A stretch of 64,000 nt of DNA from Bacteriovoracia bacterium (GCA_050246755.1 JBFWVL010000001.1:1440001-1504000), one strand, 5' to 3'. Shown: positions 11,397 to 26,916, numbered from the stretch's first letter. A program made the numbers and translations. The notes: generated by a model from the letters alone, not told the origin.

Positions 11397-12680
11397 ATGC
11401 TCACCTATAAAGAGAAATTAAAGCAGTTTTCGGAGCGCCTTATTGAGGCCCAGAAGCAAGTTAGGCTTCTGGAAGCCGTGCGTTGGGACCCAAAAATCCT
11501 CGAAGAAGTGCGTAAAAACAAATACAAAGAGCTTCCCAAAGTGGACCGCTCCACCTACGAAAATATCCCCCTTGGCTACGACCCCGACCTCAAGATCGCG
11601 GAGCTCCAAGGCATTGCCAACGACCTCGTGAACGATATCGGCCCGGAAGATTCCCTGGTGCGGATCCTGCTCGCCACCTGCCAGGAATTTCAGGACGTTC
11701 TGCGCATGCTCCAGGTAAGGGGGCGGCCCGAATTTTACGAGTATTCCAAAAAGCTCTACGGCTCGCCCCAGGATCATTTTTTCGGATCCTTGATCAGCGT
11801 GAAGGATCTCGGCCTTCACCTTTATAATATTTTGTCGGGCGTGCAAGACAGCCCGGCGGCCGACGAACGGATGCAGCAGGTGGACGCCCAGCACGCGCTC
11901 AAAGATCTCGACGAGCGCTTCGGCAAATATTTTCCCGGGCAAAACGTGAAGGTGACTATCGAGGACGCGATGGTGGCCGACGCAGCCGCGAGCGCCAAAA
12001 CAATTAAGCTCCGCGAAGCCGCCACTTTTACTAAGCGTGATATCGATATTCTCGAAGTACACGAAGGCTGGGTGCACATGGGCACTACGATCAACGGCCT
12101 CGAGCAGCGCGTGGCCAAGTGGCTGCATAAAGGCTCCCCCCGCGTGACCGCCACCCAGGAGGGCCTCGCGGTATTGATGGAAATTTTTTCCTTCGTTACG
12201 TTTCCTCGTCGCGCACGCAAGATCAACGATCGCGTGCTGGCGATCGCCAAGGCGGAAGAAGGCGCGGACTTTCTCGATGTGGTGGAATATTTTCGTACCG
12301 AAGGCTACGAGGAAGACGATTGCCTAATCGCGGCGCAGAGAGTTTTTCGCGGCGGCGACGTGAAGGGTCGTTACCCTTTCACCAAAGACATCTCCTATTG
12401 CAAAGGTTTCGTGGAAAACTATAACTTCATCCGGGCTTGCATTCAGGCCGGCCGAAGCGAAATCGTCCCCTTTCTCTTCGTGGGTAAAGTGCATGTCTCC
12501 GACGTTCCCGTGCTCTACCAGAAATACCGCGAAGGAATCGTGGATCCGCCCAAATTCCTCCCCCCGTTCTTTAAGGACCTCAATTCCCTGATCGTATGGA
12601 TGAGTTTCTCCAACTTTTTGAGTGCCGCCGGCATGACCAGCGCTCAGGATGCCTATCGCAACCTGATTCAGAAGATCTAA
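11397..12680 (+). CDS. QEGLA-motif (DUF1704/MATCAP-like) metallo-carboxypeptidase family protein
   Basis: HEGWVH (HExxxH), TATQEGLAV, RVFRGG, FTKDISY. Confidence 0.88.
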   Translation: MLTYKEKLKQFSERLIEAQKQVRLLEAVRWDPKILEEVRKNKYKELPKVDRSTYENIPLGYDPDLKIAELQGIANDLVNDIGPEDSLVRILLATCQEFQDVLRMLQVRGRPEFYEYSKKLYGSPQDHFFGSLISVKDLGLHLYNILSGVQDSPAADERMQQVDAQHALKDLDERFGKYFPGQNVKVTIEDAMVADAAASAKTIKLREAATFTKRDIDILEVHEGWVHMGTTINGLEQRVAKWLHKGSPRVTATQEGLAVLMEIFSFVTFPRRARKINDRVLAIAKAEEGADFLDVVEYFRTEGYEEDDCLIAAQRVFRGGDVKGRYPFTKDISYCKGFVENYNFIRACIQAGRSEIVPFLFVGKVHVSDVPVLYQKYREGIVDPPKFLPPFFKDLNSLIVWMSFSNFLSAAGMTSAQDAYRNLIQKI

Positions 12681-13642: not shown

Positions 13643-15094
13643 CTAGACCGCGGGCTGGCGCTTCCTTTTCTTCTCTTTTTTCACGCCCGAGGATTTCTGC
13701 CGGAATAAAGGCACGCCCGATTTCACGAGCTTGCCGCTCTCGTCGAATACGCTCTTGGCGCAGGGATATTTACCCTCTAGCGAATCCACGAAGTTCGGTA
13801 CTCCCGGCAGGGTCACGTGCTGGATTACGCGGGCCACGTGGCGTTGGAGCACGCAGGTCTTGAACCACTGCCAGTTCTGGATGCTGCCATTGAGGTTCGT
13901 TACGTCGATCTTATCAGTGAGCTCGTTATATTTTCCGGTCCAGTAGAGGCTGTCGATCATGTCGGCGGGAGAGAAGTTCTTGAAGGTGGCCACCTTCTCG
14001 AGATCCGCGCGTGTCCATTTATTATAATGGGCCAACGCGTCCACGGCTTTGGGGCCAGCGTTGTAGGAACCCACGGCCAGCAGCCAGCCCATATGTAGCG
14101 GGTACGCGCGGTCGTAGCCGGCCTGGCAGCTGCGCCCGAATTTTTCCTCGGGCTTATACTGATCTTTCTGCTTGAGGCCGGTGGGAATGAAGCGGGCGTA
14201 GAGCGAGGCGAGCTCGTTGGCCTTGGCGGCGATGCCGTTGCGGGGATCTTGGCAGCTCGTTACGAAGGCGCGTACGGCATCGTAGCGCATTCTCTGCACG
14301 GCATTCGAGGCGGGAGGGAAATCGCTTACCACATCTTCAAAGGCGATATTCTGGAAATGTTCTTTCTGCAGGCGGTATTCGGGCAAGCCATGGAGCCGGG
14401 TTTTCGCGATTTCGTAGAATGGTTTCACCAAGGTGGTTTCGAGCTGAGCGCAATCGAGCGGCGCTTTTCCCAAACCGATCCCGCGGCGGCGCGCGCCCTT
14501 TTGTTTTTCGGCCCAGCGGCACCATTCCAAAATATTTATTTGTCCAAGGCCGCAGGAGAAATTATTTCCGTCTTCGGCGATACCAAGCTCGGAAAAGAGT
14601 GATTCCTGGTAGAGCGCGCCGGTGAGCACCTGGGCGGGCATTTTATTTTCCTGGCTGGCTTCGTAGACGGCGGCGAGTTTCACGCTGCGCAGGCGCACGG
14701 CATTGTTCTGCATCCAGGCCAGCTCGATGGCGCCAGCCGAAAAGCTCCCGGGCCGCAAAGCTTCACGGCGCAGAACCTCGGTGGCGCGGCAGTAAAGGAG
14801 GGGGCGTTTGTTGAGGCGCCAGTACTCTTGGTCTTCCGGCGAAAGATTGGCGGGAAAATCTTTTTGGGGATCGTTCACGCGGGTGAGGTCGAGGCAGTCG
14901 CGATCGGGCATGCCCGGAATCAATTCTTCCACACAGCCTACCGGAGGCTGGGCCCAGTCGACGGGAGTTACGAGCGCGGAAGCGGGCCTGCGGTCCGGGG
15001 TGTTCTCGAATTCTTCCAGTAGATCCGCGGCGTGAAACGCGAAGGCGGAGCTGGAAAATAAAAAAAGCGCGCAGATGGAAATTTTGGCGAGCAT
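13643..15094 (-). CDS. Secreted lytic-transglycosylase/lysozyme-like protein with large insertions
   Basis: Signal peptide; SLT motifs ALYQES, GLGQI and AVGSYNAGP. Confidence 0.7.
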   Translation of the reverse strand: MLAKISICALFLFSSSAFAFHAADLLEEFENTPDRRPASALVTPVDWAQPPVGCVEELIPGMPDRDCLDLTRVNDPQKDFPANLSPEDQEYWRLNKRPLLYCRATEVLRREALRPGSFSAGAIELAWMQNNAVRLRSVKLAAVYEASQENKMPAQVLTGALYQESLFSELGIAEDGNNFSCGLGQINILEWCRWAEKQKGARRRGIGLGKAPLDCAQLETTLVKPFYEIAKTRLHGLPEYRLQKEHFQNIAFEDVVSDFPPASNAVQRMRYDAVRAFVTSCQDPRNGIAAKANELASLYARFIPTGLKQKDQYKPEEKFGRSCQAGYDRAYPLHMGWLLAVGSYNAGPKAVDALAHYNKWTRADLEKVATFKNFSPADMIDSLYWTGKYNELTDKIDVTNLNGSIQNWQWFKTCVLQRHVARVIQHVTLPGVPNFVDSLEGKYPCAKSVFDESGKLVKSGVPLFRQKSSGVKKEKKRKRQPAV

Positions 15095-15183
15095 GGGAAT
15101 CCTCGAGTGAAAAAAGAAGGCGTTCCTAAATTATATAGGAGGAGAAAATGGCTGCCAACGAGGGAGCCTACACGCGAGCGGCT

Positions 15184-15762
15184 CTAGGCTTTTTTACCCA
15201 TGGCTACCAGGTACATTTCCACGCTCGCTTGGCGGGTGCTGTCCGGCTTGAAGGGCTTGAACGTGGTGAAGCGGGCTTCGATTTGTTTGCGCACGCTATG
15301 CGCATCTTCGCCTTCAAATAATTTCACCACGAGATTGCCACCCACCTTGAGGTGCTTCTCGGCCACCGCGAGGGCATGCAGGCAAAGCTCGGCGGAGCGG
15401 GCCTGATCGCGGATCTTCACGCCGGAAGTTTTCGGCGCCATATCGCTGAGCACTACGTCGAAGGGGCCTTCCGGCATATGCTCGGGCTCGAGCTTGAAGG
15501 CATCGCCGTGGATGAAGCGAAACTGCGGGTGCTTGAGCTCCACTTTTTCCAGGTCTACCCCGAGCACGAGGCCACGGGGGCCAACCATCGGCAGAGCCAC
15601 TTGCACCCAGGCGCCGGGGGCGCATCCAAGATCGAGCACCTTGGCGCCGGACTTTATGAGCTTAAATTTTTTTTGGATTTCTTGGAGCTTATAAGCCGAG
15701 CGCGCGAGGTAGCCCTCTTCCTTTGCTTTGCGGTGATAGAAATCTTTTTTTTCATACGCCAT
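15184..15762 (-). CDS. rlmE: 23S rRNA Um2552 2'-O-methyltransferase
   Basis: GYLARSAYKL, LDLGCAPGAW, VLSDMAP, VVKLF, EMYLV. Confidence 0.95.
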   Translation of the reverse strand: MAYEKKDFYHRKAKEEGYLARSAYKLQEIQKKFKLIKSGAKVLDLGCAPGAWVQVALPMVGPRGLVLGVDLEKVELKHPQFRFIHGDAFKLEPEHMPEGPFDVVLSDMAPKTSGVKIRDQARSAELCLHALAVAEKHLKVGGNLVVKLFEGEDAHSVRKQIEARFTTFKPFKPDSTRQASVEMYLVAMGKKA

Positions 15763-18172
15763 AAAATTCCACCACCGTGCAGCCCTCGCCGCCCTCCTGG
15801 AGGGTGCCGGGCCGGTATTTCAGCTCGTATTTAGTCTTTTTTAGGAAATCCCGCACGGCTTTTTTCAGGGCCCCGCTGCCGTGGCCATGCACGATACGCA
15901 CGAAGGCCTTCCCGCTGCGGCTGGCCCGGTCGATATAGGTGGCCACTTGGTCCATGGCTTCGTCTACAGTACGGCCGATGAGGTTTAATTCAGTTGGCAG
16001 AGAGAAATCTTCGGTGGGCCGTTGGCGGTTCGCCGTTCGCGGTGAAGAAGGAGCGCGGGATTCGGCGCGGGGCTCGATTTGGTCCCACTTCACTTTCATG
16101 CGCAGGTTTCCGACCATCACCTCGGCCTGCTTTTCTTTCAGCGCCGGATCCGAAAGCAAAACGCCTTCGGTGCGCATCGTGAGCAGGCGCACAGGCCCGT
16201 TCTTGCGGAAGCTCACGGCCTCTTCCTCGTGCTCGATCGGAATGGTTTTGGGCGGGGGCTGGGCGGGGGCCACTTCGTCCACCATCTGGTGCACCGCCTC
16301 GAAGCTCTCCTTCAGCTTTTCGGTTTCGGCTCTGGCCGCCACGGCGGCTTCCTGCTTCTCCTGCACCGAGGGAAGGCGTTTTTTATAGGCGGTGATGGTG
16401 CGGTCCACTTCGGCCATGGCACTGCGTTCGGCCTCTTTCACGAGTTCGAGGGCTTCGTCGCGGAACCGTTTCTTATAGGCCGCGAGATCGCTATTGAGTT
16501 TGGCGTAGCGGGCCTGCTCCTCCTCGAGATTTTTTTTCACCGCCTCGAGCTCCAGCTTGGCGGCAGCGAGCTCTCGCTCTTGGCCTTCCAGTTTGTCTAC
16601 GGCGCTCTGCTCGGCCACTTTTTCTTCCGAGAGAAAGGAGCGGGCCTGATTCACCAAGCCGGAAGATAATCCTAACTTCAGGCCGATCTCCAGCGCGCGG
16701 CTGGATCCTGGCACGCCCATGCGCAGGCGGTAGGTGGGAGAAAGCTTCTCGGGATCGAATTCCATCGAGGCGCTCTCGAAGGCGCTTTCACCCGAGGCTT
16801 TCAATCCGTTGAGGTGAGTGGTCACGATCGCGTAGGCTCCGCGGGATTGCAATTCGGAAAGAATGGCCCGAGACAGCGCGGTGGCTTCGTCGGGATCGGT
16901 GGCGTGGAGGATCTCATCGATGAGCACGAGGGTGCCGCGCTCTACGCTCTCGAGAATCTCTTTGAGGTGGAGGATGCTGCCCGAAAAGCTCGAGAGGCTG
17001 AGTTCGAGGTTTTGGGAATCGCCGATCTGCGCGAGCACCTTGCTCAAAAAGGGAAGCTTAGATTCGCCGGCGCAGGGTAGAAAAAATCCCGCCCGCGCCA
17101 TGAGTGAAGAGAGGCCCACGGCTTTCAGCAGTACGGTTTTTCCGCCCGTATTGGGGCCGGAGATCACGAGCACGCGGCGTTCGGGGCCGAGCACGAAGCC
17201 ATTGCGAATGATTTTTTCGGGGGCGAGCACGAATCCCAGGAGGGGGTGGTAGAGCCCGTCGAGGAAGAATCTATCCGAGAACTCGGGGCGAGAAACGCCC
17301 TTGATGGTTTCGTATTTGCGCGCGAAGCTGGCGCGCGCGAGGCAAAGATCGATCTCCACGGAGGTCTCATACGCGTGGGCGAACTCGGCGGCGTGGGGGA
17401 AAAGCTTGGCCGAGAGCTCAGCGAGGATGCGATACACTTCCTCTTCGATCTGGAGCTGGGTTTGTTTGATTTTATCGTTCGCGTCGCGCACGGCGGCCGG
17501 CTCCATGAACACGGTGGCCCGCGTGGCCGAGCTTTCCACTACGAATCCCGAAACTTTATTGCGGAATTCGGATTTCACGGGGATGAGGTAGCGCCCGTCG
17601 CGCACGTCGTAGAATTTTTCCTGGAGGAAGCCGTCGCGGAAGGCTTGCTGCAGTACCGCTTCGACGCGTTCCCGCGCTTCGGAATGCAGGCGCCGCTCCT
17701 GATCGCGCAGGCTGCGCAGGGCGGGGCTCGCGGAATCTTTTACTTGCCCGTGGTCATCGATCGCGCGCACCAGGGCTTCGGTGAGGGGGGCGAGGGGAGG
17801 AAGCGAAAGAGCGCGGGCGTGGAGGCCGGCGCAGGCCAATACCCCTTCTTTGCCACCGAGGATGGCCTGGAGTTCCTGGGAAATCCTCGCAAGTTTGGAA
17901 AGATGAAGGAGCTCTTTTCCATCCAGTACCGAAGAGCGTTCCAGGCGCTCCAGCACGGGCTCCAGGGAATCCAAAGTGGAGAGGAATACGAAATTTCCCA
18001 GCTCCAAAGCGCGCAGGCCCTGATCCGTGAGCTCTAGGAGCGCTTCCGCTTCGTGGCGATTTTCGCTCGGCGCTATCTCGAGCGCGGCAAGCTTCGCTGG
18101 TGCGCTCAGGCAATGAACGCTATAATGCCGGAGCAGTGATTGCCATTCCAGCGATGGAAGATCCGAATTCAT
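15752..18172 (-). CDS. mutS2: MutS2 (RqcU-type): ABC ATPase, coiled coil, KOW and Smr domains
   Basis: ISGPNTGGKT, SLSSFSG, LIDEI, TTH, YRLRMGVPGSSRA, C-terminal IVHGHGSGAL Smr; no mismatch-binding N-terminus. Confidence 0.95.
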   Translation of the reverse strand: MNSDLPSLEWQSLLRHYSVHCLSAPAKLAALEIAPSENRHEAEALLELTDQGLRALELGNFVFLSTLDSLEPVLERLERSSVLDGKELLHLSKLARISQELQAILGGKEGVLACAGLHARALSLPPLAPLTEALVRAIDDHGQVKDSASPALRSLRDQERRLHSEARERVEAVLQQAFRDGFLQEKFYDVRDGRYLIPVKSEFRNKVSGFVVESSATRATVFMEPAAVRDANDKIKQTQLQIEEEVYRILAELSAKLFPHAAEFAHAYETSVEIDLCLARASFARKYETIKGVSRPEFSDRFFLDGLYHPLLGFVLAPEKIIRNGFVLGPERRVLVISGPNTGGKTVLLKAVGLSSLMARAGFFLPCAGESKLPFLSKVLAQIGDSQNLELSLSSFSGSILHLKEILESVERGTLVLIDEILHATDPDEATALSRAILSELQSRGAYAIVTTHLNGLKASGESAFESASMEFDPEKLSPTYRLRMGVPGSSRALEIGLKLGLSSGLVNQARSFLSEEKVAEQSAVDKLEGQERELAAAKLELEAVKKNLEEEQARYAKLNSDLAAYKKRFRDEALELVKEAERSAMAEVDRTITAYKKRLPSVQEKQEAAVAARAETEKLKESFEAVHQMVDEVAPAQPPPKTIPIEHEEEAVSFRKNGPVRLLTMRTEGVLLSDPALKEKQAEVMVGNLRMKVKWDQIEPRAESRAPSSPRTANRQRPTEDFSLPTELNLIGRTVDEAMDQVATYIDRASRSGKAFVRIVHGHGSGALKKAVRDFLKKTKYELKYRPGTLQEGGEGCTVVEFYGV

Positions 18173-18196
18173 GGGGGCAATCTACCAGATAGGCAT

Positions 18197-19648
18197 ATGG
18201 CACTCAAATGGAAGGAAATTTCGCTCCTGCTCGAGGAAGCACGCCCCGTGCTGCTGGGCTCTGCTATGCAGAGAATCGTGCAAGTGCGGGAAGTGGCCGC
18301 CGGCGAGAGCTTCTATTTTCAGGGTTTTGGCGAGCTGGGGGGCTGGCGGCTTTGGAGCTGCCTGCAGCAGGATAATGCCTGCCTCGTATTTGCCGGGGAA
18401 GACTGGGATCTTGAGGCCCAGCCGGAGCCTTCCACCTTCGTGATGGTGCTGCGCAAGCATCTCGTGGGCCGCAAGATCACCGGCCTCGAGCAGGTGCATG
18501 GCGAGCGCATCGTGCTGCTACATTTCGACAATGAAATGTCCCTGCTCTTTGAGCTGCTCCCCAAACGCGCCAACTTGCTGCTCGTGGATTCCTGGGACCC
18601 TGCAAAGCGCACCGCTCGCTCCATCCAATCCTTCCGCACAATCTCGCTTGCCCCCGGCGCCATTCATAGCCTGCCTCCGGCGCCGCCTACTTTGTCGGAA
18701 GAGATTAGAACGTTCGGAGAAGCGGATCCCGGCGCGGCCTTTCCCTTTCACGAAGCGGTGGCCGAGAAGTATTGGAATTTGGTGCAGAAAAGCGGGCTCA
18801 CTTCTCACAAAAAACTTTGGCGCCAGGCCTGGAAGAGCCATAGCCGCAAAGTAAATTCGGCGCTCGAGAACGTGAAAAAAGATTTCAAGGAAGCCGAAGA
18901 GGCGGAGCTATTTCTTAAGCGCGGGATGGCGCTCGTGGCTCACCTCTATGAGCTCGGCCCGAAAAAATTTCCAAAAGAGAAAAAAATCGAGCTCGACGGA
19001 ATCGAAATCCCGCTCGACCCCTCGAAAACCTATTCCGACAATTCCGAAGCCTGCTTCAAGAAATCGAAAAAATTCACCCGCGCCGTGGGCGAGCTCGCGG
19101 GCCGGATCGAAACGCTCGAGAAGAAAGTGAACGAGCTCGCCAAAACGGCGGAGAAAATCGAAAAGGCCGCCACCGACGAAGAGCTCGATGCGCTCGCGCC
19201 GGAGTTCGAAAAAGAGGGCTTGCCCCTGCCGGAAAAATCCGACGGGAAAGAGGAAAAGGAACAAGCTTCCGCGAAGCCCTTCCTGGAATTTAAGTCCACC
19301 GATGGTTTCCGCATCCTCTGCGGACGCAACCAGGCCGAGAACCGCCGCGTTACTTTCCAGGAAGCAAAGGGCAACGATCTCTGGATGCACGCGAAGGGCT
19401 TACCCGGCGCCCACGTGGTGGTGAAGGGCCAAAAAAACAAAACCATTCCGCTCTCCACCCTGCTCGAGGCCGCGCAGCTTTGCCTCTATCATTCGAATAT
19501 TCGCAAAGGGAAATCCGCCGAGGTGGACTATACCCAGCGTAAACACGTGCGCGCGATCAAGGGAACGGTGGCGGAAGTTACCTATACGGGGAATAAGACG
19601 CTCTACCTGGATGCGGATCCCGAAGTGATGAAGAAGCTACTTAGCTGA
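18197..19648 (+). CDS. rqcH: NFACT family protein (RqcH/Rqc2 homolog)
   Basis: NFACT-N FVMVLRKHL...GERIV...FELLPKRANLLLVD; coiled coil; NFACT-R DGFRILCGRN...DLWMHAKGLPGAHVVV. Confidence 0.9.
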   Translation: MALKWKEISLLLEEARPVLLGSAMQRIVQVREVAAGESFYFQGFGELGGWRLWSCLQQDNACLVFAGEDWDLEAQPEPSTFVMVLRKHLVGRKITGLEQVHGERIVLLHFDNEMSLLFELLPKRANLLLVDSWDPAKRTARSIQSFRTISLAPGAIHSLPPAPPTLSEEIRTFGEADPGAAFPFHEAVAEKYWNLVQKSGLTSHKKLWRQAWKSHSRKVNSALENVKKDFKEAEEAELFLKRGMALVAHLYELGPKKFPKEKKIELDGIEIPLDPSKTYSDNSEACFKKSKKFTRAVGELAGRIETLEKKVNELAKTAEKIEKAATDEELDALAPEFEKEGLPLPEKSDGKEEKEQASAKPFLEFKSTDGFRILCGRNQAENRRVTFQEAKGNDLWMHAKGLPGAHVVVKGQKNKTIPLSTLLEAAQLCLYHSNIRKGKSAEVDYTQRKHVRAIKGTVAEVTYTGNKTLYLDADPEVMKKLLS

Positions 19649-20866
19649 GGTAACCAGCGCTACTGCCTGCTCGCGCGTGGCGATCTTCTCGTTCAGCTGC
19701 TCACGGCGAACCATAGCCAATAGTTCTTTGATCTTTGGCCCCGCCGGAATACCGAGTTCCAGCAAATCTTGCCCGCGCAGCAGCGCCGGTGGATCCAAGC
19801 GCCCAGATTTCTCCGCTTCGGCCCTTTCGATCGGCAAGCGAGCCAGCCAAGGCAGCGCCGCTTCGTTCTGGGCGGTGAGAAGAGTCCAGGCGTATTTGAA
19901 ATAGGGCGAGGCAAGGGCGGTTTTCCGGTCGGCGAGCTCGAGCTTGGAATAGGCCGTGAGGCGGGTGATCTCGTCGGGCAGAGCGCGGATCATCGCCTTC
20001 ATCTCTTTGGGCAGTACGAAGAGCTTTTCTAAATCTTCGCCAGAAACCCAGAGTCCGATCCCGGCGTAGAACAAACCCATCGGCGGGGCTTCGTGAAAGC
20101 CGGCCGTGAAGGTAGGCCCGAGTTCCCCGAGACGCGTAAGCACCGAGGCTTCCGGCTCTATCGTGCCGAATACATGGGACCATAATCCCGTTTCTACTAG
20201 TCCTGCCAATCCCAGCATGGGCTGGCCCGAGGCGAAGATACGGTCCATTTCCTGGGTGATGCGTTCCCGGCTCACGAGCGAAAGCCTTCCCGACTGGGCG
20301 CGGATCGCGCTCACGATGCCGGGGCCCAACTGAAAATCCAGCTGGGCCTGGAAACGAATTGTCCGGAGCATTCTCAGCGCATCTTCCTGGAACCGCGCCG
20401 CGGGATCGCCCACGCAGCGGATGATCCGCGCTTCGATATCGGGGAGGCCGTTCACGTAGTCGATCACTTCTCCGGCGGCGGGATCGTAAAACAAGGCGTT
20501 GATCGTGAAATCACGGCGTTTCGCGTCTTCCTCAGGGTTTGTGAACGAAACTTCGGTAGGGTGGCGTCCGTCGGTATAGGCGCCGTCGGTGCGGAAGCGG
20601 GCGATTTCCACGGGGCCGGCGTCCGTAACCACCACCATGATGCCGAACTGTTTGCCTACGTCGAGGGTTTTGGGGAAGAGCGAGGCGATCTCCTCCGGGC
20701 TAGCCTCCGAAACGAGGTCGAAATCCTTGGGGCTAACTCCCAAAAAGAGATCCCGCACGGCTCCTCCGGCCACGAAAGCGCGCCGGCCGGCCCCCTGCAA
20801 TCGCAGGATAATTTCTTTCACATGGGGCGGCAATTGGTGGTACCAATCCACTCGATGACTACGCAT
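19637..20866 (-). CDS. cca: CCA-adding tRNA nucleotidyltransferase (class II)
   Basis: VAGGAVRD...PKDFDL, DAKRRDFTINAL, EDALRMLR, SRERI. Confidence 0.88.
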   Translation of the reverse strand: MRSHRVDWYHQLPPHVKEIILRLQGAGRRAFVAGGAVRDLFLGVSPKDFDLVSEASPEEIASLFPKTLDVGKQFGIMVVVTDAGPVEIARFRTDGAYTDGRHPTEVSFTNPEEDAKRRDFTINALFYDPAAGEVIDYVNGLPDIEARIIRCVGDPAARFQEDALRMLRTIRFQAQLDFQLGPGIVSAIRAQSGRLSLVSRERITQEMDRIFASGQPMLGLAGLVETGLWSHVFGTIEPEASVLTRLGELGPTFTAGFHEAPPMGLFYAGIGLWVSGEDLEKLFVLPKEMKAMIRALPDEITRLTAYSKLELADRKTALASPYFKYAWTLLTAQNEAALPWLARLPIERAEAEKSGRLDPPALLRGQDLLELGIPAGPKIKELLAMVRREQLNEKIATREQAVALVTSAK

Positions 20867-22087
20867 ACCAATTCTTTACCATGCATCGGCCTAAACCGTT
20901 ACGCCCAAGAGCGCGCCAAGAAGAAGCACCCCTGGGTGTTTTCCAACGAAATCCAAGATATGAAGCACGCGCAGAAACTCCCGCCGGGATCCCTGGTGGA
21001 CGTGCTGGATTGCCACGGTGGCTATATCGGCACCGGCTTTGTGAACCCGAAATCCTTGATCACCGTGCGCCTCCTCACCCGCGAACGCGGCGAAGCCATC
21101 GATGCTGATTTCTTCCGCAACCGCATCGAAGCGGCCCTTCGCACCCGCGAGCCCCTCTACGGGAAAAAATCCACCTCCGCCGGAACCTACCGCGCCGTAT
21201 TCGGCGAGAGCGACGGCCTTCCCGGCCTCGTGATCGACCGCTTCCAGGGCGCCTGGGTAGTGGAGCCCCATGCCTTCGGCATGTTTGCCCGAAAAAAAGA
21301 AATCATCGAAGCCCTCCGTGAGCTCGCCGGCAAAGACGCGATCGTATTCCGCACCGACCACCGCTCCGCCCAGCTCGAGGGTATGGCCGTGGAATCCGAG
21401 CTTGTGCACGGCGAGATTCCCAAATCCGGCGTATTCGCCGTCGAGGACGGAATCCGTTTTCCCGTGGACCCTCTCAAGGGCCAGAAAACCGGTTTCTTCT
21501 TCGACCAACGCGAGAACCGCGCATTCTTCCGCAACTATATCGAAGGCGCCGCCCGCGAAGGCAAGCAAGTGCAGATCGCCGATCTCTTCTGCCACCTCGG
21601 TGCCTGGGGACTCCGTTCCCTAAAAGCCGGTGCTGCACATGTGACTTTCGTGGATAGCTCGGGCCCGGCGCTCGACGCCGTGAGAGCCGCCGCTAAGGAG
21701 CTCGGAGTTTTGGATAAAGCCGACTTCGTGGAGAGCGACGTGCTCACTTTCCTCAAGGCACAAAAAGCCGGCGCTTGCGGCGCGCTGGTGGTGGATCCTC
21801 CCGCGCTGGTGCCTTCCAAAAAAGACGTGGCCGCCGGTTCCAAAGCCTACCGCGAGCTCAACGCCCAGGCTTTTCGCATCGTGCGCCAGGGCGGAGTGGT
21901 ATCGAGCTCGAGCTGCTCCTACCATATGCCCGAAGAGCGCTTCGAAGAGGTGCTCGCGAAAGCCGCCCTCGATTCGAATCGCGAAGCGAAGGTGATCTAC
22001 CGCGGTGGCATGAGCGCCGATCATCCTTTCCTTCCCGGAATGGAAGAGGGCCGTTACCTTAAGAATTTATTTTTGGTGGCGAAGTAG
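20855..22087 (+). CDS. RlmI-like rRNA m5C methyltransferase
   Basis: HPWVFSNEI PUA domain, ESDGLPGLVIDR, GQKTGFFFDQRENR, VDPP, SSCS; the N-terminal extension in the ORF track overlaps cca and was trimmed. Confidence 0.9.
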   Translation: MTTHTNSLPCIGLNRYAQERAKKKHPWVFSNEIQDMKHAQKLPPGSLVDVLDCHGGYIGTGFVNPKSLITVRLLTRERGEAIDADFFRNRIEAALRTREPLYGKKSTSAGTYRAVFGESDGLPGLVIDRFQGAWVVEPHAFGMFARKKEIIEALRELAGKDAIVFRTDHRSAQLEGMAVESELVHGEIPKSGVFAVEDGIRFPVDPLKGQKTGFFFDQRENRAFFRNYIEGAAREGKQVQIADLFCHLGAWGLRSLKAGAAHVTFVDSSGPALDAVRAAAKELGVLDKADFVESDVLTFLKAQKAGACGALVVDPPALVPSKKDVAAGSKAYRELNAQAFRIVRQGGVVSSSSCSYHMPEERFEEVLAKAALDSNREAKVIYRGGMSADHPFLPGMEEGRYLKNLFLVAK

Positions 22088-22103
22088 GTTACGCTATCGC
22101 CAT

Positions 22104-22640
22104 ATGCGTCTCTCTCTGCTTATTTGCCTTTTGCTGCTTGGCTGCACGGCCAAGCCCAAAGAACCACCTAAACCCCCAAGGGTGGGCTGCACGATCGTAC
22201 GCAAGGCGATTCCTGAGCCCAGCACTTCCGGCGACGCTGAAATGTCCACGATGAAGGATCCTTCCGATCCCCGCTATAAACCCCTAGATCTGATCCGCTG
22301 GAATCCGCAGCTAGACTTGAAGCAGCGGGAGGAGCTGATGAGCCTATATCGGCACACCCAAGTAGAAGTAGACCGGATTGATGGCGAAATGGCGAAGATT
22401 AAGGGTGAATACTTCCGGGCGGTGGTTACGCCCGCACGGGATGAGGCGAAGGCCAAAGAGTTGCGACTCAAGTTGGCGGAATTGAATCAAAGCCGACTCA
22501 ACGCCTCGTTAAATATGATCGATTTCATCGAGGTGGTGATCGGGAAGAGTGGGGGCGTGGATCGCGACTCCATCCAAAGGGCCTTGCTGCGCGAGGAGCG
22601 CCGCCTGGACGAGCTGGAAAAGATACGATGCGAGCCCTAA
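22104..22640 (+). CDS. Lipoprotein with a helical Spy/CpxP/ZraP-like region
   Basis: LLLLGC lipobox; QLDLKQREELMSL...AKELRLKLAEL helical pattern. Confidence 0.6.
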   Translation: MRLSLLICLLLLGCTAKPKEPPKPPRVGCTIVRKAIPEPSTSGDAEMSTMKDPSDPRYKPLDLIRWNPQLDLKQREELMSLYRHTQVEVDRIDGEMAKIKGEYFRAVVTPARDEAKAKELRLKLAELNQSRLNASLNMIDFIEVVIGKSGGVDRDSIQRALLREERRLDELEKIRCEP

Positions 22641-23689
22641 GTATTCTGCTGCTCCTTCTCACGGTCGGTTTTTCGCCGGTGGCGGAGGCGAAGGGCGGAG
22701 ATGTGAACCTGATCAACTGCTCGATCTTCGATTCTTCGGGAAAACTCCTGAAGATGTACCGGGCTTGGCTCTGCGCTTTTTTTCCGAATGGAAAAATGCT
22801 GCTCGGGGATGGCGCCACTCTCACGTTCTACGACCAGAAGATGAATATCGTGTGGGCGAAAGACATGCACGTGCATGGGTCCATTACGTATTCTGAGGCC
22901 GACGACACGGCGCTGTTGCAGGTTTCTCACGTGCTGCCCGGCGATCTGCGCGGGGATCGGCTGGAGGTCTACGACCAAGAAGGAAAGCTGATCAAGCACT
23001 TCAACTTTACTTCGAAGCATGCGTTCAAGCCGCAAGAGTTCAACTACGATCGTTTCATGCTTCCTTCCCGCGTGAAGGAAGAAGTGCACCACGTATGGTC
23101 TTTTTACCGGATCGGGCGTAATCGCTCGAAGCTCCCTTTCCTTCGCGAGGGAAACTACGTGGTGGCGGATGCATTCGGCGTGATTTATTTTTTGGATAGC
23201 AAGCTGCAGAAAATCGTCCACACGATTCATAATCATAAATTGGGGATAAGCAATTTGCGTGACGTGCAGGTTACGGAGCGCGGGAACTTGCTAGCGTATA
23301 ATAGCGGAAACGTAGACGCGCAGGGGCAGCCGTATTCTTCGCTCGACGAAATTAACCCTACGACCGGAAAATTCATTTGGCGCTATATCGCCAGTCCCCC
23401 TACTTCTTTTTATGGACCTAGTGAAGGGAATGTGCAGGAGCTCCCCAACGGAAATTTTTTGTATAGTTTGGTGATGGACGAGCGTAAGGGCAAAGAGCGG
23501 CGGCACGTTCCGCAGGAGGAGCTGGAACCCTGGATGCTCATTCAGGGCGGGCACCAATCGATCGAGATCACGCGGGATGGAAAAGAAGTCTGGAAGATGA
23601 TCTCGCACGACGATGATCTCTCCGGGAAGCCTAACGTGGTGAAGCGGCAGAATTTAGACAAGTATTTCAGCCGAAAAAAGAGATACTAG
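22628..23689 (+). CDS. Exported beta-propeller protein, arylsulfotransferase-like
   Basis: Signal peptide; EINPTTGKFIWRY, GNVQELPNGNFL, IEITRDGKEVW repeats. Confidence 0.65.
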   Translation: MRALSILLLLLTVGFSPVAEAKGGDVNLINCSIFDSSGKLLKMYRAWLCAFFPNGKMLLGDGATLTFYDQKMNIVWAKDMHVHGSITYSEADDTALLQVSHVLPGDLRGDRLEVYDQEGKLIKHFNFTSKHAFKPQEFNYDRFMLPSRVKEEVHHVWSFYRIGRNRSKLPFLREGNYVVADAFGVIYFLDSKLQKIVHTIHNHKLGISNLRDVQVTERGNLLAYNSGNVDAQGQPYSSLDEINPTTGKFIWRYIASPPTSFYGPSEGNVQELPNGNFLYSLVMDERKGKERRHVPQEELEPWMLIQGGHQSIEITRDGKEVWKMISHDDDLSGKPNVVKRQNLDKYFSRKKRY

Positions 23690-23708
23690 CCGCCAGGACA
23701 ATTTTCCC

Positions 23709-25154
23709 ATGAGCCAAAAGAATATTCTCAGGGTGTGGTTGGCGGCGCTGGTGGGCGCGCACGTGTGGACGCACGATTTTGTCTACCGTGGCCTGCTCGT
23801 GATTTGTGGGGACAGCGATTACTACCTTCACCTATCGAAGCATCTCGGCGGACCTTCGCCGGACCGGCCCATGGGTCTTCCATTTTTTTTGGCGGCGGTA
23901 GCCGGCGTGGCCGAGCGGGTGCATATTTCCTTGGTTTCTCTCTTGGCAGTAGCGGTTCATGGGCTGGCAATTCTCGCGGCCTATGCCTGGGCAAATACCG
24001 CCAGCAGGGGCGTACGGTCGGACCGAATTTTCTTTGCCGCTCTCGGCGTGGCCACGGCAATTCAGTTTTTTCCTCTATTATTGCTGATGCACTCCGCGCT
24101 GTTGATGCCGGATTCGCTGGCCCTAAGTGCGTTAGTCTTGATTCTTTGCGGAATTAGTCGCTCAAAGCCCGGGATTCGTTCTTTGGGCTGGGCTTTTCTC
24201 GCCGGAGTGTTTGCGTTGCTGCGAAGCGGACAGCTAGCGCACGCGTTGTTGATTTCTTTTTTTCTTTGCTGGCAGATCTGGAGCTTCGAAGGGGCGAAGG
24301 GGAAGCGCGCGATTTTACTTTGCGGGGTGGTGCTGAGCGCAGCGCTGCCGATTTTTCTTTATCACGAATATAATTTTAGGCAGCTCGGCGCGCGGAATTT
24401 CGGATTTATCGGCGGAAGAACAACGCTGAGTCATATCGCGAAGGGAGCGAGTTGCGAAGAGTTGATGGAGATTGCCGGCACGGCGCAAGAGCGGGAATTA
24501 ATGAAGCAGCAATGCCGGCCCGAGGAAATGAGCAAGGCGGAAGAATACCAGTTGCTTTGGGATTCGGGGAGCTTGTTTGGCCGGATCGACGAGGCCCTCA
24601 AGGAAACTCGGGCCCAGAGTAACGAGCGCTACGAAAGATGGGCTGGGCGTGCGCTCTACCTTTTTCCCGGCAAAGCAATTGCGGCGGCGTATTCTAACTT
24701 GAACGAAAGCATGCGCCGGCCTGTTTCCTATAACTTCAAACTGGCGGCGCCCGTAGAGCTCACGGAAACCTGCAGCCTGTTCACGTGGCACCTATGGAAG
24801 ATGGCTCCTCGTGATTTTATGCGCGAAATGGGGGAGTACCAGCGGCAAAATTCTGGGTTCTTCAGGGTATTTGATTCTTTTAATGAGTGGGCGGCCCGCG
24901 CCGTTACTATCTTTTCTTTAGTATTTCTCGCCTGGCCACTTTTCTATGGTTTCACTCCGATGCGCGAGGAGCCGGTGCTGGCGCTGAGCTATGCTCTAGC
25001 TTGGACCCAGCTCCTGATCACTTCTTTCGGCGTATATTACTTTACCCGGCATCATCTGTTTTTTTGCGCGCTTTCGTTCTTCCAGTTTTCGCTGCTGCTG
25101 AATGCTATTGCACGGCTGCCGAAACGCCCGCAGGAGTCGCAATATAAGAAATAG
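23709..25154 (+). CDS. Polytopic membrane protein, possible GT-C-fold glycosyltransferase
   Basis: About 10 TM helices; GDSDYYL...DRPMGLPFFL first loop; LMPDSL; large periplasmic loop. Confidence 0.6.
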   Translation: MSQKNILRVWLAALVGAHVWTHDFVYRGLLVICGDSDYYLHLSKHLGGPSPDRPMGLPFFLAAVAGVAERVHISLVSLLAVAVHGLAILAAYAWANTASRGVRSDRIFFAALGVATAIQFFPLLLLMHSALLMPDSLALSALVLILCGISRSKPGIRSLGWAFLAGVFALLRSGQLAHALLISFFLCWQIWSFEGAKGKRAILLCGVVLSAALPIFLYHEYNFRQLGARNFGFIGGRTTLSHIAKGASCEELMEIAGTAQERELMKQQCRPEEMSKAEEYQLLWDSGSLFGRIDEALKETRAQSNERYERWAGRALYLFPGKAIAAAYSNLNESMRRPVSYNFKLAAPVELTETCSLFTWHLWKMAPRDFMREMGEYQRQNSGFFRVFDSFNEWAARAVTIFSLVFLAWPLFYGFTPMREEPVLALSYALAWTQLLITSFGVYYFTRHHLFFCALSFFQFSLLLNAIARLPKRPQESQYKK

Positions 25155-26916
25155 AACCGAGCGCATTCACCACTTTTCCGGTGGTGGATTTTGCGGAGAG
25201 AGCGGCGGCGGTAGTTCCCCCGGCTTTAATGGAGGCGACCACGTCGGCGGCGGTATAGCTGGGATTATAGGCATACACGAGGGCGGCGAGGCCGGCTACG
25301 GTGGGGGTCGCCATTGAGGTGCCGTTGATGGTGTTGTAGGTCGTGTTATCGAGCACTAGCTTTTTCAGATTGAATTCGAGAATGCCCACGCCGTAGCCCA
25401 CTACGCTGGCGTTCGAGGTGAGTTGAAATCCGATATTGCACTGGTTGGTGCGGCAAGCATCGAGATCGTAGCTGTAGCTTTGGGCGGTGGTGCCGGTATT
25501 TCCGCTGAGCTGATCGAGCTGAGTTCCGCCGCCGGCGAATGGGTCGGTACCGGTACTGTCGATCATGAGATTGAAATAATCGGTGCTCGCCTCGGTATTG
25601 AGGAAGGCGTAGTAGGAGAGCACGGCGGCGCTGGCGCCGGATAAGTCGAATTGTTTATATACCTGCGCATCGAGGTTGTTGGCGTAGGTTGTGGAAGTTC
25701 CATTCCAGGTGGCGGGGTTCGTGAGCATGTCGTAGGTGGTGCCGGAGAGCGAGACGGAATTGTGGGTCCAGGTGGCGTCGTTACTGGTCCAGCCGGTGGC
25801 GAAGGTATCGGTGGTATTGGTTTCGGTACCGTTCCAGGTGCTTAGGATATTCGTGCCGGGGGCGCCTACGTCGACGCTCGAGTAGCCGTAGTTGCTGAAG
25901 CTGGCGAGAGAAAAAGATTGGTCGAGCGCGGCCACGCAGATGAGGTTGGCGGTGGTGTAGTTACAGGGGTAAACGGCATTGCCGGAAGAGTCGTTATTGG
26001 TGCCGTCGTTGCCGGCGGCCACCACGATCACGATGCCTGCGTTGCTGGCGGTGGTGAGGGCGGTATTAAAGGCTGCATCGTAGCTTGACCCACCGAGGCT
26101 CATGTTGATCACTTTCGCGCCTTCGGTGCGGGCGAAGTCCACGCCGAGCACGATGTCGGCGGTGGTGCCGGAGCCAAGGGCGTCGAGCACGCGCACGGCC
26201 ATGATGCTGGCGGTCCAGCAGACGCCGGTAGTGCCCACACCATTATTGCCGATGGCGCCGATGGTGCCGGCCACGTGGGTGCCGTGACCGTGGTAATCCA
26301 TAGGATCATCGTTGGAGTTTACGAAATTATAGCCGTGGTTCGGATAGGTAATGCCCCCGTCCCACATATTAGTGGCGAGGTCGTCGTGGTTATAGTTCAC
26401 GCCCGTATCGAGAACGGCCACGGTAATTGAGCTACAATCGGTGGTGACGCTCCAGGCGGCTTCGGCGCCGATGTCTTTGCCGGAAGTACCCGGGTTGTGG
26501 GAGGTATAAGTTCCGCCCGCCACGGTTTGGCCGGTATTCTTGAGTCCCCAGAGAGAAGAGTAGGAGGTGTCGTTGGGCACCGAGCTGATGTGATAAATAA
26601 AATTAGGTTGGGCAAACTCCACGTCGCCATCGCGATTGAGCTGGGCCACCGTGTCTTCCACATTCTGGCCGGCCGCGAGTTTCATTTTCACCAGCCCGGA
26701 CTGCCCCAGGGTTTCGGCGGAGGCTACCCCATAGCGGGCGCGTAGGCTATTGCGGGCGGAAAGAGTGCTGATGCGGCTCGCGGGCTTCACGAGAACTTCG
26801 CCTGGTTTATAGGATTGTTTGTTCTGGTTTGCCCAAGGGCGAACGCGGGTTCCGGCGGCCGGCAGGATGGCTAAGCAGGAGACGGCAAGAAGAAGGGTGC
26901 GAAAATACTTTTTCAT
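25105..26916 (-). CDS. Secreted S8 subtilase with an inserted beta-rich domain
   Basis: AVLDTG, HGTHVAG, AAGND and GTSMATP; roughly 165-aa Ser/Thr-rich insert before the catalytic Ser. Confidence 0.93.
   Translation of the reverse strand: MKKYFRTLLLAVSCLAILPAAGTRVRPWANQNKQSYKPGEVLVKPASRISTLSARNSLRARYGVASAETLGQSGLVKMKLAAGQNVEDTVAQLNRDGDVEFAQPNFIYHISSVPNDTSYSSLWGLKNTGQTVAGGTYTSHNPGTSGKDIGAEAAWSVTTDCSSITVAVLDTGVNYNHDDLATNMWDGGITYPNHGYNFVNSNDDPMDYHGHGTHVAGTIGAIGNNGVGTTGVCWTASIMAVRVLDALGSGTTADIVLGVDFARTEGAKVINMSLGGSSYDAAFNTALTTASNAGIVIVVAAGNDGTNNDSSGNAVYPCNYTTANLICVAALDQSFSLASFSNYGYSSVDVGAPGTNILSTWNGTETNTTDTFATGWTSNDATWTHNSVSLSGTTYDMLTNPATWNGTSTTYANNLDAQVYKQFDLSGASAAVLSYYAFLNTEASTDYFNLMIDSTGTDPFAGGGTQLDQLSGNTGTTAQSYSYDLDACRTNQCNIGFQLTSNASVVGYGVGILEFNLKKLVLDNTTYNTINGTSMATPTVAGLAALVYAYNPSYTAADVVASIKAGGTTAAALSAKSTTGKVVNALGSISYIATPAGVSAAVQ

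Follow-up and report, generated by a model that had tools for sequence, protein, structure and literature searches.

A mutS2-rqcH gene neighbourhood conserved in Bdellovibrionota, encoding an RqcH homologue without the HhH domain pair

A 64,000-nucleotide stretch of DNA from Bacteriovoracia bacterium (GCA_050246755.1, JBFWVL010000001.1:1440001-1504000; here the window, with positions counted from its first letter) carries five consecutive genes at 15184-22087, identified from the open reading frame (ORF) list and Pfam and NCBIfam scans as rlmE, mutS2, rqcH, cca and an rlmI-like gene. Two of these, mutS2 (rqcU) and rqcH, are core genes of bacterial ribosome-associated quality control, and the compact, lineage-conserved neighbourhood that physically links them probably serves a ribosome rescue route of the kind outlined below. 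The mutS2-rqcH pairing is a lineage-conserved linkage in Bdellovibrionota and provides genomic support for the MutS2-to-RqcH pathway of Bacillus subtilis. This pathway rests almost wholly on B. subtilis, and the present locus adds independent genomic evidence from a distant Gram-negative phylum, one that carries a minimal RqcH without helix-hairpin-helix (HhH) domains and no detected S4 cofactor of either known kind. The assembly from which the window is taken totals 3.55 Mb over 10 contigs, with a completeness of 95.7%; G+C in the window is about 52-61%, and its closest database proteins and contigs belong to metagenome-assembled genomes labelled Bdellovibrionota, Bdellovibrionales or Oligoflexia.

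The mutS2 gene (15752-18172, minus strand) encodes 806 aa and rqcH (18197-19648, plus strand) encodes 483 aa. The ATG of mutS2 is the complement of 18170-18172 and that of rqcH lies at 18197, so that the divergent spacer between the two start codons, read from the DNA, measures 24 bp (18173-18196). The spacer is also 24 bp in the related loci L006 and L008 and longer in L009 and L007, and four close relatives keep the start positions of both genes; the open frame extends upstream of the chosen start for rqcH (18140-19648, plus strand) and likewise for the rlmI-like gene (20561-22087, plus strand). On the outer sides, the start of rlmE overlaps the stop of mutS2 by 11 nt (15752-15762), rqcH and cca converge with their stops overlapping by 12 nt (19637-19648), and the starts of cca (20866) and the rlmI-like gene stand head to head with their 5' ends overlapping by 12 nt. 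A preliminary description of this DNA had named the same five genes and their tight junctions; all five identities are borne out at the level of Pfam and NCBIfam families, and the 24-bp spacer and the overlaps of 11, 12 and 12 nt are confirmed on the DNA.

Conservation of the locus was assessed in two passes. In the first, window proteins were compared by tblastn with 80 public rqcH-bearing loci, the best 80 of 573 confirmed matches. In the second, 151 Bdellovibrionota genomes, the window's own included, were searched at thresholds of E≤1e-10 for the rqcH profile and E≤1e-60 for MutS2. Pfam NFACT_N was insensitive as a probe for the phylum (39/151 genomes) and was replaced by a profile of alignment A1, with which rqcH was detected in 75/151 genomes; mutS2 was found in 86/151. 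Regions of 20 kb from 80 genomes were scanned with HMMER, of which 74 were centred on rqcH and six, all from family-level group f17, on mutS2 because rqcH fell under threshold there.

Among the nearest relatives (L006-L011, RqcH identity 33-67%), the tblastn comparison shows that mutS2 divergent from rqcH is retained, together with ppiC, rlmE, cca and rlmI wherever the contig is long enough. Over the 151 genomes, rqcH and mutS2 are present or absent jointly at family level, with neither gene found in f10, f14, f18, f19, f21 and f23 (0/39 genomes for each). The direct neighbour of rqcH is mutS2 in 38 of the 80 regions (32/74 when only rqcH-centred regions, all from genomes other than the window's, are counted), and rqcH stands beside mutS2 in all six of the mutS2-centred f17 regions. 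The divergent arrangement occurs in f1, in f8, in f7, where a 1.3-kb gap separates the two genes, and in 17 of the 18 f17 genomes, the contig of the eighteenth ending at rqcH; a tandem arrangement, rqcH then mutS2, occurs in all 18 genomes of f11. Uniqueness of the adjacency to this genome, which the preliminary description had named as grounds for refutation, does not hold, as the adjacency is present in five or more family-level groups of Bdellovibrionota. On a FastTree tree of RqcH itself (80 rows, one short f11 ORF left out), the tandem form makes up one clade and the divergent form appears in at least three separate places, the mutS2 states requiring 7 changes as against a mean of 33.4 when shuffled. 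These clades are far apart in sequence, the A1 profile scoring 717 bits in f1 as against 34-103 bits in f17 and f11.

Co-occurrence of RqcH with MutS2 has been put at 97% (PMC11633108). The survey of Burroughs and Aravind (2014, PMC4075521) places archaeal NFACT genes beside a Mut7-C RNase and AMMECR1, and states that no conserved neighbourhoods emerged for the bacterial ones. The archaeal case likewise represents a conserved tie to RNA-processing or RNA-modifying enzymes, although the partners differ, being mutS2, cca and an RlmI-like gene here. Neither mutS2-rqcH adjacency nor an HhH-less RqcH was found to be reported in the collection of papers that was searched. Outside Bdellovibrionota, represented by the 56 of the 80 best-of-573 loci not so labelled, mutS2 lies beside rqcH once, in a member of the Nitrospiraceae (L056). 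The same 56 loci include two from Nitrospirota in which a stand-alone Smr gene of 89-90 aa lies divergently upstream of rqcH (L066:9367-9633 and L084:5377-5646). The two genes adjoin in the window, whereas in B. subtilis they lie far apart in the genome.

MutS2 of the window is a full-length member of its family, matching TIGR01069 at 663.5 bits (cut-off 400) over positions 5-790 of 790, without the MutS I and II domains. Its residues 5-803 run collinear with 6-784 of B. subtilis MutS2 (7qv3; E 5e-104), and it shares with that protein (7QV3, 8QPP) aligned Walker A (GPNTGGKT) and Walker B (LVLIDE) motifs, a KOW-like region and an SMR domain (15764-15988, minus strand; Smr PF01713, 74.7 bits) with its HGxG. 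The ATPase core is encoded at 16628-17167 (minus strand). The MSSS/KOW-like domain PF20297 scores 23.5 bits, just under its cut-off of 26.8, and the region aligns to that of B. subtilis. The SMR site reads N-L-I where B. subtilis has D-L-R and nucleases have DxH, so the DxH is wholly lost; in this the protein departs from SMR nucleases of the SmrB and Cue2 type, in which DxH is the catalytic motif. According to PMC10897456, the MutS2 clade has often lost DxH, and MutS2 hydrolyses ATP to split disomes while leaving the mRNA uncleaved.

RqcH matches NFACT_N (PF05833) at 113 bits (cut-off 31) and NFACT-R_1 (PF05670) at 48.5 bits (cut-off 29.8). It aligns to B. subtilis RqcH (7aqc) with E 3.7e-36, residues 74-167 corresponding to 68-172 and residues 216-481 to 301-567, where B. 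subtilis residues 301-440 align to the coiled coil and middle hairpin region of the window protein. The order of parts is the same as in B. subtilis RqcH (7AQC, 7AS8, 7OPE), with NFACT-N (18197-18670), a linker (18671-18742), a coiled coil with the middle (M) hairpin (18743-19213) and NFACT-R (19283-19642), all on the plus strand. However, the protein has 483 residues against 570 in B. subtilis, and the two HhH motifs that there separate NFACT-N from the coiled coil are missing.

This absence is apparent by several routes. An hhalign comparison of 21 short and 13 long forms gives a probability of 100 (E 1.7e-87) and leaves about 100 long-form columns, those of the HhH region, unmatched. In an AlphaFold2 model of the window RqcH (pLDDT 86.6), a coil at residues 159-182 leads straight into a coiled-coil helix at 183-233, and helices 183-253 and 279-323 flank strands at 263-272, forming the coiled coil with its middle hairpin. 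The top Foldseek match of the model is ribosome-bound RqcH (7aqc_R, E 9e-25); its N-terminal domain superposes on 5h3x and 3doa with a root-mean-square deviation of 2.6-2.9 over about 175 columns, and about 175 residues are aligned of the 266-267 in these N-terminal crystal structures, which include HhH. A hidden Markov model of the HhH region matched none of 80 Bdellovibrionota rqcH ORFs and none of 79 short database homologues, while it matched 29 of 33 long homologues, including 16 of 20 that had not been used to build it. The window RqcH and all 80 Bdellovibrionota homologues examined are therefore without the HhH domain pair, and the short form is also found in Myxococcota and Nitrospirota. 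In B. subtilis the HhH domains contact the tRNA anticodon stem-loop. Two HhH domains are described in PMC4075521 as part of the core shared by all NFACT members.

Residues associated with tRNA contact are retained. The window protein and B. subtilis RqcH share an acidic-Arg motif, an E-hydrophobic-hydrophobic motif (E119-L-L, the counterpart of E121-I-M) and a conserved Asn. The acidic-Arg motif is E103-R104 (codons 18503-18508, plus strand), within G102-E103-R104, which aligns to L-D97-R98 of the B. subtilis tRNA-contact motif. The preliminary description had noted GER in place of the DR motif and proposed that tailing could differ on this account. The substitution is real, but the difference in tailing drawn from it is unsupported, since Glu is the majority residue in both length classes (17/21 short and 11/13 long forms) and Arg is invariant (21/21 and 13/13). 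The more unusual traits of the locus, which that description passed over, are the missing HhH pair, the undetected RqcP and YlmH, and the SMR domain without DxH.

In B. subtilis, RqcP and YlmH matter for tailing. Neither S4 partner of B. subtilis RqcH is detected in the window's genome or in the phylum sample. A model of Hsp15/RqcP, positive in B. subtilis, gave no match in the window's genome (G000) at E≤0.1, and over the 151 phylum genomes gave nothing beyond cross-matches to other S4 proteins, none scoring over 21 bits: 13 of the 14 weak matches fall in ORFs whose lengths, 207-380 aa, are those of uS4, TlyA and pseudouridine synthases, and the remaining one in an 88-aa ORF from a family without rqcH. 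YlmH_RBD was found neither in the window's genome nor over cut-off in any of the 151 genomes. Matches to the S4 domain in the window's genome comprise uS4 and TlyA along with six pseudouridine synthases and a 69-aa YbcJ/YaaA-like protein. We infer that the loss of the HhH pair and that of the S4 partners are linked. Sizeable fractions of Myxococcota and Nitrospirota have been reported to encode RqcH without RqcP or YlmH, and an unidentified factor has been proposed for them (PMC11317155). Apart from the 69-aa YbcJ/YaaA-like protein (L177:1420-1629, on contig 2 of G000), a possible candidate stand-in for RqcP, no stand-alone S4-domain protein was found in the genome.

Taken as the B. subtilis pathway would predict, the most likely course of events begins with MutS2. 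With its ABC-type ATPase intact and DxH missing from its SMR domain, this protein would recognise collided ribosomes and split the stalled one, leaving the mRNA uncut. The short RqcH would then bind the 50S-peptidyl-tRNA particle and direct C-terminal tailing, with release presumably by Pth. Pth, SmpB and transfer-messenger RNA (tmRNA) are present in the genome, and bacterial release has been reported to proceed via Pth with the tRNA left intact (PMC11633108). A search of the genome for the Vms1-like factor bVLRF1 (PF18826) gave no match and is uninformative, since control genomes were equally silent. At the level of expression, mutS2 and rqcH would be read outward from the 24-bp spacer, with rlmE probably co-transcribed with mutS2. 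A spacer of this length implies promoters inside each other's coding regions or nearly leaderless mRNAs, and on this geometry co-regulation of mutS2 and rqcH is plausible.

The three outer genes are family members whose scores stop short of the cut-offs set for exact functional equivalents. The rlmE-like gene (15184-15762, minus strand, 192 aa) encodes a complete FtsJ 2'-O-methyltransferase domain (PF01728, 173.6 bits) and matches TIGR00438 (rrmJ) at 173.7 bits over positions 1-186 of 188, where the equivalog cut-off is 300 (300.15); its architecture is the FtsJ architecture of Escherichia coli RlmE, which makes Um2552, although the score remains below the NCBIfam equivalog cut-off. The cca-like gene (19637-20866, minus strand, 409 aa) encodes a class II tRNA nucleotidyltransferase with head and RNA-binding domains (PF01743, PolyA_pol head, 126.6 bits; PF12627, 46.5 bits), and its sequence carries the GGAVRD, DFD, RRDF and EDALR motifs. 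Against the CCA enzyme model PRK13299 it scores 232 bits (cut-off 290), with its C-terminal half unmatched, and its activity may be CC-adding, A-adding or CCA-adding. A second class II nucleotidyltransferase is encoded elsewhere in the genome (G000:C1:1169311-1171671; L088:812-3172); this 786-aa protein best matches the pcnB subfamily (218 bits, cut-off 306) and has a long C-terminal part without a Pfam match. The rlmI-like gene (20855-22087, plus strand, 410 aa) encodes an RlmI-family protein with a PUA domain (PF17785, 70.3 bits) and an S-adenosylmethionine-dependent RNA m5C methyltransferase domain. This is the PUA and class I methyltransferase architecture of E. coli RlmI (m5C1962), although the protein scores below every NCBIfam equivalog cut-off (NF046099, the RSP_2647 family, 268.9 bits, cut-off 600; NF053718, 240.2 bits) and reaches 221.5 bits against RlmI PRK15128 (cut-off 712). 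Its sole well-placed in-frame ATG is at 20855. In L006, L008 and L009 the start codons of cca and the rlmI-like gene abut back to back (CAT|ATG); the window counterpart of the relatives' rlmI-like ATG reads ACC, and translation probably begins at the ATG 12 nt upstream, which lies inside cca. Over the four sequences, DNA identity around this junction (20855-20866 region) is 82%, higher than the protein identities of 49-67%.

Since the products of all five genes work on ribosomes or tRNA, the locus could be read as one co-regulated module of five steps, in which MutS2 splits, RqcH tails, Cca rebuilds tRNA 3' ends that release has clipped, and RlmE and the RlmI-like protein re-methylate or proof-check the recycled 50S subunit. 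Some features of the neighbourhood favour such a module. An rlmI-like gene lies within the rqcH region in 33 of the 80 Bdellovibrionota regions, in two arrangements, divergently upstream in f3, f4, f5 and f9 (15 regions) and downstream on the same strand in f1, f8 and f17 (18 regions), so the link between rqcH and rlmI has outlived a rearrangement. The cca gene converges with rqcH in 19/80 regions, all of the window's class and often with overlapping 3' ends, and rlmE lies near mutS2 in 16/80 (f1 and f17), being directly downstream of it also in L007, L009, L010, L011 and G106. Among the best 80 of 573 loci, an rlmI-like gene was near rqcH in 20 and cca in 15. A precedent for end repair comes from mammals, where tRNase Z(S) and TRNT1 mend tRNA that ANKZF1 has cut (bioRxiv 10.1101/2021.08.05.455008); in this ANKZF1 - tRNase Z(S)/ELAC1 - TRNT1 recycling a CCA enzyme is likewise tied to rescue, whereas here the tie is by gene position alone, the bVLRF1 search brought up no clipping nuclease, and the bacterial release factor is Pth.

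The wider distribution of the outer genes makes the five-step module unlikely. The rlmI-like gene occurs in 119/151 genomes, including those of families that lack rqcH (7/9 in f10, 19/20 in f13, 11/14 in f18), and so is a housekeeping gene. The cca gene belongs to a near-universal enzyme family, and it was not found near rqcH in f11, f16, f17 and f20 among the 80 regions scanned; accordingly, neither gene tracks rescue. RlmE and RlmI are not known to have a role in rescue. With Pth present and release attributed to it, the CCA end would not be clipped in the first place (PMC11633108). It is more likely that cca and the rlmI-like gene travel with rqcH through shared expression of the translation apparatus or through inherited order than as steps of rescue.

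The rescue route from MutS2 to RqcH must itself be weighed against several observations that count against it. Many relatives lack the adjacency: mutS2 was not found inside the 20-kb rqcH regions of f2-f6, f9, f15, f16, f20, f22, f24 and f25, and in 15 of the 19 sampled genomes of the window's class that fall in f2-f6 and f9 it is on a separate contig or over 200 kb off, while in the remaining four it is 17-26 kb from rqcH. Other neighbours are conserved as well: the genes after rqcH encode an ABC transporter and a GHMP kinase in f16, f20, f22, f24 and f25 (19-21 regions), and rqcH is placed after trpC, trpF, trpB and trpA in 13-15 Nitrospirota loci. The sampled genomes are related and so are not independent samples. 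A promoter scan of 15000-22300 returned 2 sites against 1.8 expected, none of them in either divergent junction. Moreover, tailing activity is not assured, because the HhH pair, RqcP and YlmH are all missing.

Several of these observations would also fit inherited gene order alone, that is, a frozen accident without meaning even for mutS2 and rqcH. Unrelated genes are equally conserved beside rqcH in other clades, and the adjacency is missing in about half of the sampled genomes; as the ABC transporter/GHMP kinase and trp neighbours show, gene order by itself is weak evidence. However, mutS2-rqcH stands apart from these, because the pair occurs in two orientations over clades with very distant RqcH and because the two genes are gained and lost jointly across families. 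A biochemical link between their products is, in addition, established in B. subtilis (PMC11633108, PMC10897456). A frozen accident is thus decidedly unlikely for this pair. It is highly improbable that the older annotations are right, with MutS2 acting on DNA (recombination suppression, endonuclease), NFACT acting as a fibronectin-binding adhesin and the pairing unrelated to ribosomes: the database names 'endonuclease MutS2' and 'fibronectin-binding protein' persist, but the SMR DxH residues are absent, the top structural matches are ribosome-bound RqcH complexes, and the tRNA-contact E-R, the E-L-L and the conserved N are kept.

Returning to the rescue route, the missing S4 partners allow a bolder extension, which we regard as a long shot. 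In Bdellovibrionota, and probably in the Myxococcota and Nitrospirota with a short RqcH, tailing by an HhH-less RqcH could proceed free of RqcP and YlmH, with a linked neighbour supplying the missing function on the side of the tRNA or of helix 69 (H69), or recycling the tRNA. The neighbour may be the CCA enzyme or the PUA-containing RlmI-like protein, relatives of which modify helix 70 beside the RqcP site. If true, neighbour-assisted tailing would name the 'yet-to-be-identified factor' sought in the 2024 YlmH paper (PMC11317155). The question of what replaces RqcP and YlmH now becomes testable, with a defined protein, few positional candidates and cultivable relatives (Bdellovibrio).

Within the divergent spacer (18173-18196), no sigma-70-like site was called. 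A palindrome, GCAATCT-NNN-AGATTGC (7+3+7), lies at 18177-18193; it is perfect in L006 and L008, departs from symmetry at two mismatches in the window copy and does not occur in L010 or L011. The window copy is within chance, with 86 of 100 shuffles giving at least two matches at three or fewer mismatches, and the palindrome is not claimed as an operator. A terminator scan of 15000-22300 found 11 sites against 10.6 expected.

Between ppiC and rlmE lies a 483-aa ORF (13643-15094, minus strand) without a Pfam or NCBIfam match, which looks like a genome-specific insertion because ppiC abuts rlmE in L009, L010, L011 and G106. Right after the rlmI-like gene are three co-directional ORFs of 178, 353 and 481 aa (22104-25154, plus strand), likewise without a Pfam or NCBIfam match and not found beside the cluster in relatives, and after these a subtilase with a fervidolysin-type prodomain (25105-26916). 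In 16 of 18 f17 genomes, the gene after rqcH, on the same strand, encodes a 270-aa protein that belongs to no Pfam family (L114:10412-11224); with the L114 sequence as query, no homologue was found in G000. Further upstream in the window, at 11397-12680 (plus strand), lies a gene for a bacterial MATCAP homologue (PF08014, 400.9 bits), which among the 80 regions is shared only with G106.

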